From a virus (taxonomy: Duplodnaviria > Caudoviricetes), in IMG/VR virus record IMGVR_UViG_3300050821_001527, positions 64,001-128,000 of that record: a DNA stretch of 64,000 nucleotides, one strand, 5' to 3'. A model generated the notes under the pieces. It was not told where the DNA came from, did no database searches, and saw only the letters and a program-made list of their open reading frames with translations. Made by a program: the position numbers and the translations under genes. Positions 41,587 to 61,563 of the stretch are shown here, piece after piece (positions within the stretch are counted from its first letter, which is position 1; the number at the start of each line of letters is the position of its first letter).

Positions 41587-44166
41587 ATGGATAATAAATT
41601 TGGTTACGAAGAATCTCTGGAAGCCTCGATTTCTTACTTTAACGGCGATGAACTGGCCGCGAAAGTCTTTCTCGACAAATACGCCCTGAAAAACGAGCAG
41701 TCCGAAATCTTGGAGAAGTCGCCGTATATGATGCACAGCAGACTGGCGAAGGAGTTTGCCCGCATCGAGAAAAACAAATTCAAGGTCGCCCTCACCGAAG
41801 CTGAAATATTTTCGTTCTTCGACAGGTTCAAATACATCGTCCCTCAAGGGTCGCCGATGTTCGGCATCGGTAACAATTTCCAAATCATTTCGCTGTCCAA
41901 CTGCTACGTTGTGGAAACGCCGAGTGACAGCATCGGCGGCATTCTAAAGACCGACCAGCAGCTTGCTCAGATTTCCAAGCGCAGGGGCGGCAATGGAGCA
42001 TCACTCAATTCACTTCGCCCTTCCGGTGCGCCGACCAAAAACTCCTCCCGTTCTTCAACCGGAGTTCCGTCTTTCGCAGAAAGATACTCCAACACGATTC
42101 GTGAGATTGGACAGTCTGGTCGTCGTGGAGCCTTGATGCTTACCTTGTCAGTTCATCACCCGGACTGCTGCAAGATTGACGACGCCCAATGGGAATCTCC
42201 TAAGAAAATCGTTCTCAAGGGTGACGCCGAAAAACAGGAGCGCGACATTGTTACCGACTCCCGATTCTACGACGAGAACAACGTTGACTTTTGCTCAATG
42301 AAGTTAAACAGAAAGAAAGTCACGGGAGCAAATATCTCCATCCAGCTTTCGGACGAGTTTCTCAACGCCGTTAAGAAGGGCACAAAATACGAGCAGCGTT
42401 TCCCTCTCGACTATAAGGAGAAGGGTGTCAAGCCGATGGTATCGAAGATGGTTGACGCCCGCAAGGTGTGGCAAAAAATCATTCATTGCGCGTGGCAGTC
42501 TGCCGAACCCGGATTGCTTTTTTGGGATTTGATTAGACAGTTCAACGCGGTTGACTGCTATGCAAAACATGGGTTCGCCACGGAGTCCACAAACCCTTGT
42601 TCCGAATTGCCGCTCTGCATACTCGACTCTTGCAGGCTGATGGTGCAGAACCTATACTCTTACGTTCTCCATCCGTTTTCCAAAGACGCAAGGTTTGACT
42701 ACGACTTGTTCTACGCCCACGCGAAAATCTCGCAGAGGCTCATGGATGATTTGATTGACCTTGAACTCGAAAAGATTTATCAGATTATCGCCAAAATCAA
42801 GTCAGACCCGGAACCCGAAGAAATCAAGAGAGAAGAACTGACGCTGTGGGAAAAGATAGCTGAGAAATGTTCCTCTGGTCGAAGGACTGGGCTTGGCGTT
42901 ACTGGTGAAGGCGATGCCATTGCCGCCGTAGGTCTGAAATACGGTTCCGACGAAAGCATTAAGTTCGTGGAAAAAATCCACAAGACTCAGAAACTTGCCT
43001 CATTCGATTCGTCCTGTGAAATGGCCCAAGAGATTGGGGCTTTCCCTGTTTGGGATTGGGAATTGGAAAAGGATTCGGCGTTTCTTCTTCAAATCAAAAA
43101 GGAGGATGAAGCTCTTTATGAGCGCATCAAGAAATACGGACGCCGTAATATTGCGAACCTGACGATTGCCCCTGCGGGAACAGTTAGCATTATGACGCAG
43201 ACTACTTCCGGCGTAGAGCCGTTGTTCGACATTAAGCCATACGAACGCCGCAAGAAAATCAACCCCAACGACAGTTCCTCTAGGGTGGACTTCACCGATA
43301 CTAACGGAGACAAGTGGCAGAAGTTCGAGGTTAAACATCCCAAGCTCCAAATATGGATGGATGTAACCGGGGAGAAGGACTGGAAGAAGTCCCCTTGGTA
43401 TGGTTCCTGCGCTCCTGATATTGACTGGAAGCAGCGCGTCAAACTGCAAGCCGCCGCGCAGAGGCACATTGACCACGCCATTAGCAGCACCATCAATCTC
43501 CCGGCAGAAGTCACCGAAGAAAAGGTAGCCGAGATTTATCTTGAGGCTTGGGAGAGTGGGTGCAAGGGGATTACGGTTTATCGTGAAGGATGCCGTAGTG
43601 GAGTCCTTATCCGCAAGGACAAGGAAGAAGGCCCGAAGATTACCAAGACCGTAGCTCCTAAAAGGCCAAAGAGTCTGGAAGGAAAGCTTCACTTCTTCAA
43701 TTTCCGTGGCGACAAGTATTTCGTTGCCGTGGGGTTATTGGGTGGAACACCGTATGAAATCTTCACCGGATTCAACAGCGAGAAAAAGCGCGACTTTATC
43801 CCGAAAGACTGTAATACTGGGCAAATCAAAAAGCACCGCAGAGGGCATTATGTATTCGAGTCCGCAACGGATGGCGAGACGTATGCTCTTAACAATGGTC
43901 ACTCCGACGACAACGCCGACGCTTTGACCCGCATGATTTCTTGCAGTCTTCGCCACGGCAGCGACATTGCCTTCGTCATTCACCAGCTTGAAAAAACTTC
44001 CGGCGACTTGTCCTCGTTCTCGAAGTGCTTGGCTAGAACGCTAAAGTGCTACGTCGAAAACGGTAAAGAGGTTTCCGGCGAAGAATGTTCGGAATGCGGA
44101 AGCAAGCTCCACAGGGAGAACGGCTGCATTATTTGCAAGAACTGCGGAAACTCAAAATGTGGATAA
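41587..44166 (+). CDS. nrdJ: Class II (adenosylcobalamin) ribonucleotide reductase
   Basis: LSNCY, KRRGGNG, GRRGALM, TNPCSE, IAPAGT, C-terminal TSCPD domain plus Zn ribbon. Confidence 0.93.
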   Translation: MDNKFGYEESLEASISYFNGDELAAKVFLDKYALKNEQSEILEKSPYMMHSRLAKEFARIEKNKFKVALTEAEIFSFFDRFKYIVPQGSPMFGIGNNFQIISLSNCYVVETPSDSIGGILKTDQQLAQISKRRGGNGASLNSLRPSGAPTKNSSRSSTGVPSFAERYSNTIREIGQSGRRGALMLTLSVHHPDCCKIDDAQWESPKKIVLKGDAEKQERDIVTDSRFYDENNVDFCSMKLNRKKVTGANISIQLSDEFLNAVKKGTKYEQRFPLDYKEKGVKPMVSKMVDARKVWQKIIHCAWQSAEPGLLFWDLIRQFNAVDCYAKHGFATESTNPCSELPLCILDSCRLMVQNLYSYVLHPFSKDARFDYDLFYAHAKISQRLMDDLIDLELEKIYQIIAKIKSDPEPEEIKREELTLWEKIAEKCSSGRRTGLGVTGEGDAIAAVGLKYGSDESIKFVEKIHKTQKLASFDSSCEMAQEIGAFPVWDWELEKDSAFLLQIKKEDEALYERIKKYGRRNIANLTIAPAGTVSIMTQTTSGVEPLFDIKPYERRKKINPNDSSSRVDFTDTNGDKWQKFEVKHPKLQIWMDVTGEKDWKKSPWYGSCAPDIDWKQRVKLQAAAQRHIDHAISSTINLPAEVTEEKVAEIYLEAWESGCKGITVYREGCRSGVLIRKDKEEGPKITKTVAPKRPKSLEGKLHFFNFRGDKYFVAVGLLGGTPYEIFTGFNSEKKRDFIPKDCNTGQIKKHRRGHYVFESATDGETYALNNGHSDDNADALTRMISCSLRHGSDIAFVIHQLEKTSGDLSSFSKCLARTLKCYVENGKEVSGEECSECGSKLHRENGCIICKNCGNSKCG

Positions 44167-44168
44167 TT

Positions 44169-44372
44169 ATGGACGAGCAACTTACATTTCCCTTCGATAA
44201 AAAGGTATTCGCCACGCAATTCCTTAGTGGGCTTGATATAAAATGCAATTTATCGAAAGCACTTGGCAAGGCTTACTGCCCCAAATGCGTCATCAGGCAG
44301 GTAGGAACCTGTAGTTGCCGTTTCTGCATGATTTGCCCAAAGTGCGGCGGGCACATGGAAGAAATTACTTGA
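44169..44372 (+). CDS. Cys-rich zinc-finger protein, 67 aa
   Basis: CPKC...CSC.FC.ICPKCGG. Confidence 0.55.
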   Translation: MDEQLTFPFDKKVFATQFLSGLDIKCNLSKALGKAYCPKCVIRQVGTCSCRFCMICPKCGGHMEEIT

Positions 44373-44401
44373 CTTAAACCGCAATCCGTGTAGAATAGTA
44401 T

Positions 44402-44602
44402 ATGAAGAAGTCATTTGATTACGCCATCGGCGAGACAGTGGAATGGAACGGCATGACGTTGGTAAAGACCGTTCAAGGCACGGGTGAATTGACCAACCAA
44501 GAATCGGAAGAAATTTGGAAGTGCAAGAAGTCGGGGAAGAAGTATTCCCCCGCACTCCGATTCGAGCAGGGGTTGAGTGGCCCTGACTTCGAGAGTTACT
44601 AA
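44402..44602 (+). CDS. Hypothetical protein, 66 aa
   Basis: TTGACT-N16-TAGAAT promoter 5 nt upstream. Confidence 0.55.
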   Translation: MKKSFDYAIGETVEWNGMTLVKTVQGTGELTNQESEEIWKCKKSGKKYSPALRFEQGLSGPDFESY

Positions 44603-44617
44603 TTTGTTCTTTGTAAT

Positions 44618-45001
44618 GGGGACGTAATGGTTTCGACATTTATTGTTGAAAGCCGAACGCAAGCACGGGATGATTGTTGGCCCGTTAAAAATTCAATCAA
44701 AACATAAATGCTAACAAAGTAGCACTTAGAAATGCAGTTGACTGCGGAGTAGTTCGCGGTTTTGCAGCATTTGCGATGGCTTAATGCCGTCCCGTCCACC
44801 ACTCCGATTCTCGCTACGAGTGAATGGGCGTAAAAACAGCGGGAAAAAACCCTAGAGCCGGTTCGAGGGTAACGGAACCGGATATTGATGGTGAGTTTTG
44901 CTGCCAGTGTAGCCAATCAAGAATATCAAAGGCTGATAAGCTTGTAGTGTTTTTCTTGCAAACGTAAGTGGACGCGGGTTCAACTCCCGCCGTCTCCACC
45001 A
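44618..45001 (+). ncRNA. ssrA: tmRNA, tag ORF 44710-44784 (A)ANKVALRNAVDCGVVRGFAAFAMA*
   Basis: 5' GGGGACG...GGTTTCGAC and 3' GCGGGTTCAACTCCCGCCGTCTCCACCA; G3.U70, A73; TA-N3-GCT resume context. Confidence 0.95.
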
Positions 45002-45006
45002 TTTTC

Positions 45007-45122
45007 GGGGCTACTGGTCAGACTTGATGAACGAAAGCTAATACCGACAAACCGGATTGCTAGAGAATAGCATTTACGCAGGCCGTCATTGAGGCACGGT
45101 TTAACTCCGTGTAGCTCCACCA
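45007..45122 (+). ncRNA. Mini tmRNA-like RNA (tRNA-like domain plus about 55-nt insert)
   Basis: GGGGCTA/TAGCTCC-A-CCA with G3.U70; stemless D loop ending GAC; 8-bp P2 CTTGATGA/TCATTGAG; T arm CACGG-TTTAACT-CCGTG. Confidence 0.75.
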
Positions 45123-45123
45123 A

Positions 45124-45504
45124 TTACGCCTGCTGGTTTACTTCGACATTGACTCCCAATGCCTTCAAACGGCTGACGAGAGAATCAACTTCCGCGCTTG
45201 CGGCATCAGCGGCAGTCTTAACGGCTTGTTGGGCGGTTGCTTGAGCAGTCTGGATGGCATCCTTGGCCACCTGAACCGGCTGATACTTTTCCTGAAACTT
45301 GGTCAACTGGTGACTGGCAATGCCGATTAACAGCAGCTTCCAATTCGCCTGAGTCAAATCAGCCCCGCTGGATTCGATAGCCGCCTTCACTTGAGGGAAC
45401 AGCGCGGTCAAGGTCGTGAGCAAAGCAATAACACGGCCCATTGAAATGTTGCCTTCCCCGTCCCCAAGGCCAAGGGTGTGCAGAAAATTCTGGAGTGCTT
45501 TCAT
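45124..45504 (-). CDS. Holin-like membrane protein
   Basis: Two hydrophobic helices (SMGRV..LL motif) plus Ala/Gln-rich coiled tail; GTGTAAT-N7-ATG. Confidence 0.5.
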   Translation of the reverse strand: MKALQNFLHTLGLGDGEGNISMGRVIALLTTLTALFPQVKAAIESSGADLTQANWKLLLIGIASHQLTKFQEKYQPVQVAKDAIQTAQATAQQAVKTAADAASAEVDSLVSRLKALGVNVEVNQQA

Positions 45505-45543
45505 ACCTTTTATTACACTAAAAGTAAATAAAAATTCAATTTA

Positions 45544-45831
45544 ATGGGTCTATTAGGTATGGAACTTGATAAATCATCGGTGGCCGAGAAGGATATATTT
45601 AACACCTTGCTCGCGCTGAAAAGTGTGACGTTTTTGGAGGAAGAATCCGCAAAGCTTCTCCGAAAGATGGACAGGCTTGAAGTGAGGCGTTCACTGAGCC
45701 GAGATTATGCGGAAAGGGAGCGTCTCTTGGCGCAGATAGAATCCCACCTACCCCAGTTGAGAGTCCTCAAGGCCAGATGTGACGTGGAGTATAGAAATAT
45801 TACCAACCTGTCTCGCCGCAAGATACAATAG
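45544..45831 (+). CDS. Hypothetical coiled-coil protein
   Basis: Helical charged ORF. Confidence 0.5.
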   Translation: MGLLGMELDKSSVAEKDIFNTLLALKSVTFLEEESAKLLRKMDRLEVRRSLSRDYAERERLLAQIESHLPQLRVLKARCDVEYRNITNLSRRKIQ

Positions 45832-45978
45832 TCGTGAAAGACTATATTCTGGTTCTTGAAAAGAAAAAGCGTTACCAATACGGAGCCTTCCCCCGCACGA
45901 AGGCCGGTAGGGAGAACGCGAAGAAATACGTGAAGAAGCTTAAAAAGGAACACAATATGGACTTCGTTTTGAAGTAAC

Positions 45979-46164
45979 ATGAAAGACCTTGACGACATTA
46001 TTGCCCTTTTGAACGACATCATTCTGGTAAGCCGCGTCCAAGATGCGAAGCTTGACCCCATGAGGCCGGGGGAGGGTTTCGTGACTTTTCATATCAAGCT
46101 GGTGCGAGACAGATTACAGGAGATGAACGCCGGTTCGGGCAATCAGGAGACGAAAACATGCTAA
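45979..46164 (+). CDS. Hypothetical protein, 61 aa
   Basis: ORF overlapping the next start. Confidence 0.45.
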   Translation: MKDLDDIIALLNDIILVSRVQDAKLDPMRPGEGFVTFHIKLVRDRLQEMNAGSGNQETKTC

Positions 46165-46439
46165 CGGTTGGGGTAATCAGGGAGTTGAATTTCATGTCAG
46201 AGTTGACCAGCCTGCCGCTCAAGGCGGATTTGTGCCTTTCTGACGTTTTGTGCCTGACGGTCAATATATCGAATAAAATTCTGACCGTCCATCACGAAGG
46301 GGAACTCATTTGGGAGGAGTCCTTGGATGATGAATTTGGGAACTTTGGCATCGAATCCTGCCACCGTATCGCTCAAATTCTGCAAGCCAAACACTCCAAA
46401 AGTGACTATAAACACCTGATTTACAGAGAAAAATCTTGA
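46158..46439 (+). CDS. Hypothetical protein, 93 aa
   Basis: ORF in operon. Confidence 0.45.
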   Translation: MLTVGVIRELNFMSELTSLPLKADLCLSDVLCLTVNISNKILTVHHEGELIWEESLDDEFGNFGIESCHRIAQILQAKHSKSDYKHLIYREKS

Positions 46440-46473: not shown

Positions 46474-47061
46474 ATGTCGTGTGAAAAAACTCTGATTGAA
46501 AGAATCCAGACTGGGAAAGATGAAAAAGCGTTTGAAGAACTTATGGAGTTACATAGGGAAAGAACGCTTGGCTCCATAAAAAGCCAATGCCGTTTCTCTC
46601 CGGTTGACCCAAATGAAGTCTGGAATATCGCGCTCGTCAAGGTCTGGAACTCAATCGGGGCTTTTCGAGGCGACAGCAAATTCAGCACATGGCTGTATCA
46701 TATTGTCCGAAACGTCATTTATAATGAGTGGGCCAAACTGAATCGAATTTCCCGCAACGAGGTTCATCTTGAAAATATTGACACTCAGACCAGCGAATTT
46801 TCCACGTCAGAAACCCCGTTGTCAACAATTTCCAAGGAGGAATTTCAAGCCGAACTGGGTAATAGAATTTGCGGGTTGAAAATGGAGTTGGGGGAAAAGC
46901 ACAGGAAGGTTTTTGAATTAGTGTTTGAACAGGGCAAGTCTTACTCCGAAGTCGCGCAGTTGCTTGATTGCCCGCGTGGAACCGTAATGAGTCGAGTCTT
47001 TGCTGTCAGGAGAAAACTCCAAGCCGCCCTTGAAAAATATGAACATATTACAGCTAACTAA
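46474..47061 (+). CDS. ECF (RpoE-like) sigma factor
   Basis: AFEELM..H, FRGDSKFSTWLYHI..N, region 4 SYSEVAQLLDCPRGTVMSR. Confidence 0.92.
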   Translation: MSCEKTLIERIQTGKDEKAFEELMELHRERTLGSIKSQCRFSPVDPNEVWNIALVKVWNSIGAFRGDSKFSTWLYHIVRNVIYNEWAKLNRISRNEVHLENIDTQTSEFSTSETPLSTISKEEFQAELGNRICGLKMELGEKHRKVFELVFEQGKSYSEVAQLLDCPRGTVMSRVFAVRRKLQAALEKYEHITAN

Positions 47062-58750: not shown

Positions 58751-58830
58751 GAGAATCGAGACGCGGGTGCATATCCCGCCTGCCTGTTTAAATACTTGCA
58801 GTAGCTTAGTAGCAGAGCGCGATTCGTCTC
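58751..58830 (+). ncRNA. YrlA-type Y RNA (permuted tRNA mimic), A18.G55 version
   Basis: Outer GAATCG/CGATTC, T arm, loop-closed acceptor CTGC/GCAG, TA, D arm GCTT-AGTAGCA-GAGC. Confidence 0.75.
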
Positions 58831-58838
58831 CCTTTTAC

Positions 58839-59457: not shown

Positions 59458-59835
59458 ATGCAAAACGTTTATCTGAACCGCGACGAACTCCTGCCGATTG
59501 TCAAGGAGAACAAGCAAAAGCACGACAACATTTTTTCCACAGCCGTTTCCGGCTATTGGGTCAAGGCCGAAGAAATCCTGAACGGCAAACTGAACAAGGT
59601 CAAAGCCAAGCAGCAAGTTGACAATTACCTTGGACTCAGCTATCCCGAAGACCATTCTGATGAATATGACCGAGTAATCAGGATGCTGGAACTTTCGTCT
59701 GATGACAAGATTCAGCTTACGTCTTCCGAGTTTGATTGCTATGTTCGCAATCAATGGAACTGGCGCAAGGCGTTCTTGACGGTCAATTCAACATACATTT
59801 CGGACTGGAACCCCATTTCCGGGGCTTCATTCTAA
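59458..59835 (+). CDS. Hypothetical helical protein, 125 aa
   Basis: TATCAT -10-like element 4 nt upstream; plausible fold. Confidence 0.7.
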   Translation: MQNVYLNRDELLPIVKENKQKHDNIFSTAVSGYWVKAEEILNGKLNKVKAKQQVDNYLGLSYPEDHSDEYDRVIRMLELSSDDKIQLTSSEFDCYVRNQWNWRKAFLTVNSTYISDWNPISGASF

Positions 59836-59915
59836 CAGTCTTGGTCGAGGCGTGGGTTCGATTCCGCCGTGTGGCTCCATGCCGCACGTAGCTTAGTGGC
59901 AGAGCGCGACCTGTT
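59834..59915 (+). ncRNA. YrlA-type Y RNA, canonical G18.U55 version
   Basis: GGTCG/CGACC outer stem, TTCGATT loop, 7-bp loop-closed acceptor GTGTGGC/GCCGCAC, D arm GCTT-AGTGGCA-GAGC. Confidence 0.8.
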
Positions 59916-61415: not shown

Positions 61416-61563
61416 GGGTATATGTTGTAATGGCAGCAAAAAGGGCGGGAGAGTCGAGGGAATAGCAGACCAACTATAGCTCTGTAAGCCTAGTAGCTCG
61501 ATTTGAAAACCTGAATACTCGTCTATACGAGTGGCCTCGGTTCGATTCCGGGTATATCCACCA
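61416..61563 (+). ncRNA. 148-nt tRNA shell (G3.U70, canonical elbow) with about 60-nt insert
   Basis: GGGTATA/TATATCC-A-CCA; D loop GG; T loop TTCGATT; variable hairpin; GTCGAG/CTCGAT-closed insert. Confidence 0.65.

Follow-up and report, generated by a model that had tools for sequence, protein, structure and literature searches.

A tRNA-like RNA element with alanine identity directly downstream of the tmRNA gene in a jumbo phage genome

The window analyzed here is a 64,000-nucleotide (nt) stretch (bases 64001 to 128000) of a 202,882-bp (203-kb) IMG/VR virus record, IMGVR_UViG_3300050821_001527, from a jumbo phage; the sequencing runs that contain the stretch are labelled soil metagenome. 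It carries a complete gene for transfer-messenger RNA (tmRNA; ssrA) and, immediately downstream on the same strand, a 116-nt tRNA-like element that is called the mini below. The phage record includes a large tRNA array; the mini lies 7.6 kb away from that array and adjoins the tmRNA instead. That the mini is a real, structure-maintained tRNA-like RNA gene is well supported, and likenesses at the sequence level suggest that it was probably derived from the tRNA-like domain (TLD) of a tmRNA.

The ends of the mini carry the full alanine identity set. The acceptor stem forms 7/7 pairs, including G3.T70 (G3.U70 in the RNA), and is followed by A73 and CCA, which together are the elements recognized by alanyl-tRNA synthetase (AlaRS). 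The T stem is likewise complete (5/5 pairs), and position 56 of its loop, TTTAACT, is T rather than C. A D-loop-like segment of 10 nt, CTGGTCAGAC, ends in GAC and has no D stem. An 8-bp helix resembling P2 of tmRNA, CTTGATGA/TCATTGAG, can join nt 17 to 24 of the element with nt 80 to 87 through 8 pairs, 2 of which are G.U, and small hairpins (CCG/CGG and GCTA/TAGC) may form within the 55-nt insert that the helix encloses. These features had been described in an initial annotation made from the DNA letters, and rereading the sequence confirmed its account of the 5-nt distance from the ssrA CCA, the acceptor ends, the G3.U70 pair and A73, the stemless D loop ending in GAC, the T arm, and an insert of about 55 nt that contains the frame ANTDKPDC with its stop in a small hairpin. 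The coordinates are collected in Table 1.

Table 1. Features at and around the tmRNA/mini locus, in window coordinates
Feature	Position	Strand	Remarks
Class II ribonucleotide reductase (RNR) gene	41587-44166		upstream of the tmRNA
Sigma-70-like promoter match (candidate), TTGACT-16-TAGAAT	44369-44396	+	10/12 consensus positions
Small open reading frame (ORF)	44402-44602		
tmRNA (ssrA), complete, tag ANKVALRNAVDCGVVRGFAAFAMA*	44618-45001	+	ARAGORN; RF00023, 140.5 bits
Second promoter-like match	44646-44674		within the tmRNA
Spacer TTTTC	45002-45006	+	5 nt, from tmRNA CCA to mini G1
Accessory slot	45002-46157		from the tmRNA to the conserved ORF
tRNA-like (TLD-like) element, whole (mini)	45007-45122	+	116 nt
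Acceptor 5' strand GGGGCTA	45007-45013	+	pairs with 45112-45118; pair probabilities 0.80-1.00
D-loop-like single strand, CTGGTCAGA plus C17	45014-45022	+	keeps TGG and GAC; C17 opens the next helix
P2-like helix, 5' strand CTTGATGA	45023-45030	+	pairs with 45086-45093
Insert	45031-45085	+	55 nt, in place of pseudoknot and mRNA-like domains
Short frame GCT AAT ACC GAC AAA CCG GAT TGC TAG (ANTDKPDC*)	45037-45063	+	
P2-like helix, 3' strand TCATTGAG	45086-45093	+	similar to TCATCAATG, the 3' strand of P2 in the L016 tmRNA
T arm CACGG/TTTAACT/CCGTG	45095-45111	+	abuts the acceptor 3' strand
Acceptor 3' strand TAGCTCC, discriminator A73, encoded CCA	45112-45122	+	
Convergent orphan ORF, 126 aa	45124-45504	-	stop 1 nt from the mini 3' end
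Conserved ORF	46158-46439		
Sigma-factor gene	46474-47061		
Permuted tRNA-like unit	58751-58831	+	
Permuted tRNA-like unit	59834-59915	+	
tRNA-like element, 148 nt	61416-61563	+	inside the tRNA array

A combination of this kind does not arise by chance. A strict scan of the 203-kb genome (GGG start, 7/7 acceptor, U70, A73, CCA, 5/5 T stem, a TTNNANN loop, and a span of 60 to 200 nt) returned only the mini and a 148-nt element, and raising the upper limit to 420 nt added the tmRNA; since the scan gave 0 matches in 300 shuffled genomes, the module is not a chance occurrence. The 148-nt element has the acceptor GGGTATA/TATATCC (with G3.U70), A73, and CCA, together with a TTCGATT T loop, a D arm, and a large insert in the anticodon region; the mini showed no relationship to it or to the phage tRNA-Ala(GGC). 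Standard finders pass over the mini. Neither ARAGORN with default settings nor Rfam at the gathering threshold calls it, ARAGORN in tmRNA mode at a 70% threshold returned nothing, and the RF00005 (tRNA), RF00023 (tmRNA), and RF02544 (mitochondrial tmRNA) models gave no match to it at E <= 10 in searches of 901 nt and 128 nt.

Relatives of the phage were found via homologues of the upstream RNR (82% identity in L007, 81% in L008, 80% in L009/L010, 68% in L016/L017, and 68% in L018), and were compared at the loci around the tmRNA. In each of these (L007, L008, L009/L010, L016/L017, and L018), a tmRNA occupies the equivalent position just 3' of the RNR gene; L009 and L010 carry the same tmRNA, so that there are five distinct sequences. 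The window tmRNA aligns over its full length with those of L007, L008, L009, L016, and L018 and is their orthologue. Its tag, ANKVALRNAVDCGVVRGFAAFAMA, is quite unlike the core ..F(I/V)P(A/V)ME(F/M)....V(V/T/A)A that is common to the tmRNAs of L008, L009, L016, and L018, despite the clear orthology of the remaining RNA; for the L007 tmRNA, ARAGORN reported no tag.

It is these clade tmRNAs that the ends of the mini most resemble. The acceptor strand of the mini is identical (7/7) to that of the L016 tmRNA, and when the last 28 nt were compared with tRNAs and tmRNAs, the best match was again the L016 tmRNA (21/28, versus 19/28 for the phage tRNA-Ala). The D loop, CTGGT..GAC, parallels CTGGTTTCGAC and is shorter than clade tmRNA D loops such as TACTGGTTTCGAC. 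The T loop equals the clade tmRNA loop TTCAACT at 6/7 positions and is unlike TGCGANT, the usual loop among the tRNAs of this phage. The T stem departs from that of the closest TLD at three pairs, all by compensatory changes (ATGGG/CCCAT versus CACGG/CCGTG), and against the adjacent window tmRNA four acceptor pairs differ with pairing kept in all of them; differences of this kind point to maintenance of the helices rather than to free decay. The interior gave a different result. Colinear alignment to the six clade tmRNAs, and to that of the distant L019, gave the insert no advantage over shuffled inserts (z of -1.2 to 0.85), and the proposal that vestigial pseudoknot or tag segments survive in the insert was dropped on that ground. 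Antisense pairing between the insert and the tmRNA was also no better than with shuffled sequences.

Several other identities for the element were considered and set aside. A canonical tRNA, possibly with an intron, was rejected for want of a D arm, an anticodon arm, and any default ARAGORN or RF00005 call. With introns allowed and thresholds at 90%, ARAGORN could be forced to call a tRNA-Ser(aga) with an 18-nt intron, which was rejected for its poor stems (only 3 pairs in the D stem, mismatching in the anticodon stem, and no pairing in the variable region). An att-site duplicate of the tmRNA 3' end was rejected because the mini has its own complementary 5' strand, and the differences between its acceptor and T stems and those of the adjacent tmRNA also count against such a copy. 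A YrlA-type or circularly permuted tRNA mimic was rejected because it is the acceptor, with its CCA, that supplies the free ends of the mini, and because neither a T arm of 5 bp and 7 nt nor a closed 7-bp stem occurs in the insert.

The nearest known counterpart is a phage RNA. Hudson, Lau, and Williams list "Mycobacterium phage DS6A (TLD only)" (PMC4131195), and the passage concerned, citing Mao et al. (2009, RNA Biol 6:355), states that a molecule similar to this TLD-only RNA strongly inhibits tmRNA; a passage in Nawrocki, Petrov, and Williams (PMC11915505), citing the same work, has the DS6A form itself inhibiting endogenous tmRNA in Escherichia coli. A structural scan placed the DS6A RNA (tmRNA Website ID 11587, "Phage__Mycobacterium.9") at JN698994 28478-28557, between gp33 and gp34, where the GenBank record has no annotation. 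Its parts, in order, are the acceptor (GGGGCCG/CGGCTCC), a D loop with a terminal GAC, a 5-bp P2 around a 20-nt insert, and a T arm, and it served as a positive control for RF00023, which detected it at 34.7 bits (E of 1.3e-12) with the interior skipped. Like the mini, it is phage encoded and has G3.U70 and A73, a D loop that lacks a stem and ends in GAC, an insert closed by a short P2 (P2-like in the mini), and a T arm, and no SmpB gene is annotated or was found in either phage. The two differ in size (80 nt with a 20-nt insert and no encoded CCA, as opposed to 116 nt with a 55-nt insert and CCA) and in setting, since the DS6A RNA is the only ssrA-like gene of its phage whereas the mini stands in tandem with a complete tmRNA. 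The mini also has a shorter D loop and junction and a T loop beginning TTT, not TTC. RF00023 finds the DS6A RNA and misses the mini; the mini shares the architecture of the DS6A RNA and departs further from the tmRNA consensus. The DS6A insert opens with ACGAAAAC and that of the mini with ACGAAAGC, a likeness that is probably coincidental.

Other tmRNA forms are further removed. Natural tmRNAs that lack a coding sequence (CDS) occur in mitochondria and, as forms of about 65 bp, in Mallomonadaceae plastids (PMC11915505). The jakobid mitochondrial (RF02544) and Mallomonadaceae examples share with the mini a TLD-only build, the absence of a tag frame, and presumed SmpB partners (PMC11915505). They differ in being organellar, lineage conserved, much shorter, and the sole ssrA of their genome, and the mini has no RF02544 match. 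Compared with the standard one-piece tmRNA (RF00023), the mini has the same TLD layout, alanine identity, and encoded CCA, and its ends are most like the clade tmRNA TLDs; it differs in lacking pseudoknots, the long H2 helix, the resume signal, and a degron tag, and in being missed by ARAGORN and Rfam. The initial annotation of the element as a mini-tmRNA is supported as regards a tRNA-like gene with alanine identity and a TLD-like layout, and is not supported as regards a working tag template. Its further suggestion of an SmpB decoy or inhibitor has a published precedent in the passages on DS6A cited above (PMC4131195 and PMC11915505), an inhibitor that possibly titrates SmpB, so that the idea is already of a known kind, and it is set back by the missing RF00023 match and the lack of a homologue. 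Novel features of the present case are its position in tandem with a complete ssrA, an insert of greater size, and a TLD that has diverged further.

The surroundings of the mini are compatible with a transcript shared with the tmRNA. The sole promoter-like site upstream of the tmRNA also lies upstream of a small ORF and is a candidate start for a transcript carrying both RNAs, as a consensus match that is no proof of function; a second promoter-like match falls within the tmRNA. No terminator-like site was found between tmRNA and mini or just past the mini, and there is no T tract. The convergent orphan ORF that ends next to the mini had no homologue except itself among 5.8 billion proteins and only a weak match to PHROG 5400; it is treated as context and may lie outside the system. 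No SmpB gene was found in the phage, so the tmRNA and the mini would both rely on SmpB of the host.

The stretch is present in five public runs, including three metatranscriptomes. In one of these RNA runs (X3), a 745-nt contig at a depth of 24 spans 44714-45458 and takes in the tmRNA except for its 5' third, the whole mini, and the greater part of the convergent ORF; neighboring genes in this run stand at depths of 2.5 to 3.2, and the contrast may point to strong transcription of the orphan ORF region there, contig depth being only a rough guide. In the second, the tmRNA has a depth of 23.5 and a separate contig covers 45018-45168 at a depth of 2, and in the third only the tmRNA is covered. 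The mini is therefore covered by RNA-library contigs of two studies, one of which bridges from the tmRNA. Such contigs show neither ends, strand, nor level, and uncovered parts and depth differences were not taken as absence.

The reading that we prefer takes the mini to be a lineage-specific, tag-less tmRNA-like gene that is cotranscribed with the tmRNA, is alanylated, and, if active, tunes trans-translation in the manner of the DS6A RNA; as a joint package, we give it a probability of about 0.5. In this scheme the mini would lie on the same primary transcript as the tmRNA, being on the same strand and 5 nt away with no terminator between them. RNase P would free it at G1, leaving the tmRNA with a 5-nt 3' trailer, and the mini would be trimmed to its encoded CCA. 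An acceptor/T-arm minihelix with G3.U70 suffices for AlaRS, and because G3.U70 and A73 are present in such a minihelix of the mini, the host enzyme would be expected to charge it with alanine. The charged RNA would template no tag; if active, it would most likely draw SmpB, EF-Tu, or AlaRS away from full tmRNAs, thereby damping or tuning trans-translation. Any action of the mini on trans-translation is something that we infer only, by analogy with DS6A.

A number of observations weigh against this interpretation. The unconstrained minimum free energy (MFE) structure (-33.3 kcal/mol) retains the acceptor and T arm and replaces the P2-like helix with a 4-bp hairpin. A fold forced to contain the helix is only 1.5 kcal/mol worse (-31.8 kcal/mol), a point in favor of the TLD-type layout, and the ensemble probability of the helix is about 0.35; the 8 pairs claimed in the initial annotation can form, without being part of the MFE fold. 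The z-score of the fold against shuffled sequences is modest (-1.77). The D loop (10 nt, as opposed to 13 to 14 nt) and the junction between P2-like helix and T arm (1 to 2 nt, G/GG, as opposed to 4 nt) are shorter than in any clade tmRNA, the D-loop segment by 3 nt and the junction by 2 to 3 nt, which makes binding of SmpB by the mini uncertain. A decoy that titrates SmpB would, moreover, hamper the phage's own tmRNA.

The initial annotation had proposed a search with a tmRNA TLD model and one for homologues next to phage ssrA genes. RF00023 misses the mini even at E <= 10, at which the DS6A RNA is found and an element following the L016 tmRNA scores 19.5 bits. The mini is a singleton: it is absent from 6/6 syntenic loci with a tmRNA (L007, L008, L009, L010, L016, and L018). 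In L007, L008, L009, and L018, a promoter-like sequence and a CDS on the plus strand begin within 40 to 70 nt of the tmRNA, and L016 has its own, different element there. A blastn search of 50,697 phage records with 44600-45130 as query gave no homologue, an exact 17-mer of the mini had four chance matches in IMG/VR, all inside CDSs, a 21-mer had none in IMG/VR or in genome contigs, and blastn-short and nhmmer of the mini against 500 kb of phage loci found nothing. A pattern for the clade tmRNA had no match in IMG/VR and three in metagenome contigs, at distant tmRNA/tRNA loci that all lack the mini; an exact-peptide search for the RNR in IMG/VR was likewise empty. The RNA contigs overrun the mini past both ends, at the 3' end into the convergent ORF, and show no discrete stable or abundant 116-nt species. 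The mini, finally, borders a hypervariable region. Gene order shared between window and relatives is not regained before the conserved ORF and the sigma-factor gene (Table 1), and this late return places the mini and the orphan ORF together in a hypervariable stretch; the interval between the tmRNA and the conserved ORF is different in every relative (L007, L008, L009, L016, and L018) and constitutes an accessory slot.

Much of this would be expected if the mini were a decaying relic, that is, a second copy of ssrA, arising by duplication or coming from a relative (the L016 phage, for example), that lost its pseudoknots and tag by deletion and persists as a neutral passenger of the tmRNA transcript. 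Lack of conservation in relatives, a hypervariable location, the missing RF00023 match, the shortened D loop and junction, the T in place of C56, the absence of a functional resume signal, and no sign of a discrete abundant RNA all fit such a history. The state of the helices does not. The acceptor and T stem are fully paired, the differences from the closest TLDs are all compensatory, A73 and CCA are intact, and an 8-bp P2-like helix can close the insert, all features that a random loss of about 270 nt should have damaged as well. The interior, moreover, has no significant colinear similarity to tmRNA, so that a recent deletion derivative cannot be demonstrated. The initial annotation had paired an absence of conserved homologues with a decayed ssrA duplication; no conserved homologue was found in the collections searched, and the relic, although we consider it rather unlikely, stays a live rival to an alanylated, tag-less RNA.

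The element that follows the tmRNA in L016 (7542-7657 of ENA ERZ19026949 scaffold_67) has a construction of its own. It is also 116 nt long and starts 9 nt after the tmRNA, with an outer acceptor (GGGTGCG/CGCATCC) that has G3.U70, A73, and CCA and an outer T arm. Inside, a second T arm is stacked on a 7-bp stem that a loop closes (AAAGTCC-ACCATAC-GGGCTTT) and whose third pair is G.U; the body also includes a capped palindromic hairpin. A cut at the inner ACCA would yield two chains joined by two alanine-type acceptor helices. ARAGORN miscalls this element as a permuted tmRNA. The body plan of its inner unit recurs in two permuted tRNA-like units in the window (T arm, then loop-closed acceptor stem, then D arm; Table 1).

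Alanine-type RNAs of similar length are not confined to this clade. IMG/VR was scanned for the pattern TCCACCA, 1 to 15 nt, GGG..., a canonical T loop, and ...TCCACCA, with the second element spanning 97 to 127 nt, which gave 27 loci (L026-L052). In 19 of the 27, there is a 98- to 124-nt RNA with a 7/7 acceptor, G3.U70, A73, and CCA, and in 17 of these 19 the 5-bp T stem is perfect as well. ARAGORN called none of them over the full span (0/19) and made shorter or overlapping calls on 4/19: a tRNA-Glu inside L038, a tRNA-Thr overlapping L031, a permuted tmRNA* across L016, and an upstream tmRNA reaching 7 nt into L033. The pattern-scan elements lie 2 to 14 nt after a tRNA-Ala or tRNA-Tyr or, in L033 (5374-5483, minus strand), 5 nt after a tmRNA; because the pattern forces an upstream TCCACCA, an alanine-type 3' end, adjacency to alanine-type genes is partly a selection effect. 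Two body plans occur, a "double T-arm" form seen in several elements and a form with a single T arm and a long structured insert. One 109-nt family is present in five contigs of 54 to 303 kb (L027, L037, L040, L049, and L052), with a compensatory T-stem change in L037. On this sequence evidence, the 98- to 124-nt alanine-type RNAs possibly represent an unannotated class.

The mini could belong to a broader, undescribed set of this kind, made up of "shell" RNAs of about 100 to 150 nt with alanine identity in jumbo phage tRNA regions. Such RNAs, with bodies that vary, would require no role for SmpB or trans-translation; they might serve as chargeable sinks or decoys that occupy AlaRS, EF-Tu, or RNase P, or they might donate alanine to some other process. 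Alanine identity alone resides wholly in the acceptor stem, so any RNA body can be charged. The 148-nt element in the same genome and the 19 RNAs from the pattern scan lend the proposal some substance. The elements most comparable in position, those of L016 (116 nt) and L033 (110 nt), also lie 5 to 9 nt after a tmRNA CCA, with G3.U70, A73, CCA, a T arm, and no tRNA call by ARAGORN, a parallel that also counts in favor of the preferred reading. Their "double T-arm" body, with an inner T arm on a loop-closed, 7-bp acceptor-like stem, is different, and they have no sequence similarity to the mini insert; nor do the pattern-scan elements as a whole resemble the mini in sequence. The mini lacks the D arm of the 148-nt shell, its D loop, T loop, and acceptor resemble those of tmRNA TLDs, and it sits beside a tmRNA well away from the tRNA array. 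Membership in such a set as the whole explanation of the mini therefore seems improbable.

Two further alternatives concern what the element might do for its neighbors or for a nascent protein. A tRNA-like fold located 3' of another RNA, as with mascRNA and MALAT1, directs the RNase P cleavage that forms the 3' end of the upstream RNA. The mini might in the same way be a processing or insulating element that recruits RNase P to set the tmRNA 3' end, blocks transcription converging from the orphan ORF, or does both, and the 5-nt gap to the tmRNA CCA, the convergent stop 1 nt away, and the absence of an intrinsic terminator on either side are in keeping with this. Relatives mature their tmRNA without a mini, however, a plain RNase P handle has no need of G3.U70, A73, or an encoded CCA, and there is no T tract for termination, so that we regard this role as very unlikely. 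Both mascRNA and the AlaRS minihelices, as eukaryotic long noncoding RNA elements and experimental constructs, respectively, bear on how the mini may work and not on the family to which it belongs.

The short frame within the insert has little of what a tmRNA needs for tagging. It opens with GCT AAT ACC (Ala-Asn-Thr), as clade tmRNA tags open with ANT, ANK, or ANA, and its stop lies within the hairpin GCTA-GAGAA-TAGC. The likeness of the resume region, GCTAATAC versus GCTAACAC, was not significant (p of 0.03 to 0.37 depending on the motif) and is not used as evidence. The six clade tmRNAs (6/6) have T-5 and A-4 upstream of the resume codon (T-A-A-A-T before GCT); in the mini, GCT is preceded by ACGAAA, with C and G at -5 and -4. 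The first codon of the frame is at nt 31, just 6 nt past the 8-bp helix, compared with nt 93 to 96, behind pseudoknot PK1, in full tmRNAs, and the mini has no pseudoknots, no long H2 helix, and no hydrophobic degron, the frame ending in ...PDC. The missing degron and resume signal had been noted in the initial annotation and are confirmed. Without U-5/A-4 and pseudoknots, and with a gap of only 6 nt from the P2-like helix, the mini would be unable to template tagging; judging from tmRNA-ribosome structures (PMC8363625), the resume codon would lie too near the TLD to enter the decoding center. The frame is thus probably not translated, and ANTDKPDC as a tag, whether working or vestigial, finds no statistical support. 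A working mini-tmRNA that adds the nondegron tag (A)ANTDKPDC, for which the Ala-Asn-Thr opening, the stop in a hairpin, and the existence of natural tags of 2 aa (PMC11915505) could be cited, is barely credible, given these departures and the fact that an open frame of 8 codons in 55 nt is unremarkable.

A more ambitious form of the preferred reading joins it to the wider set of RNAs. The mini would then be a functional, alanine-charged TLD RNA, made with the tmRNA, that reprograms trans-translation in the host, for instance through occupancy of SmpB, EF-Tu, or stalled ribosomes without tagging, and would be one of a wider group of jumbo phage alanine "shell" RNAs, including the double-T-arm forms after tmRNA, that exploit an alanine identity confined to the acceptor. 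As a joint claim, it is put forward tentatively, and we think it doubtful that all of its parts hold together.

Few phages encode a tmRNA, and the part that it plays is not settled. A full tmRNA and a stripped TLD-like RNA that would share one transcript form a natural pair in which to ask what a phage does to ribosome rescue: strengthen it, retune it, or block it. The pair also lets one ask whether SmpB competition of the kind seen with the DS6A-type construct in E. coli is exerted by TLD-only RNAs in nature. If the mini is instead a relic, it documents the whittling of a tmRNA down to its TLD. The wider observation may matter more: dozens of jumbo phage contigs carry alanine-acceptor RNAs of 100 to 125 nt that are missed by standard finders, which suggests that there is an unannotated class of chargeable RNAs in these phages.

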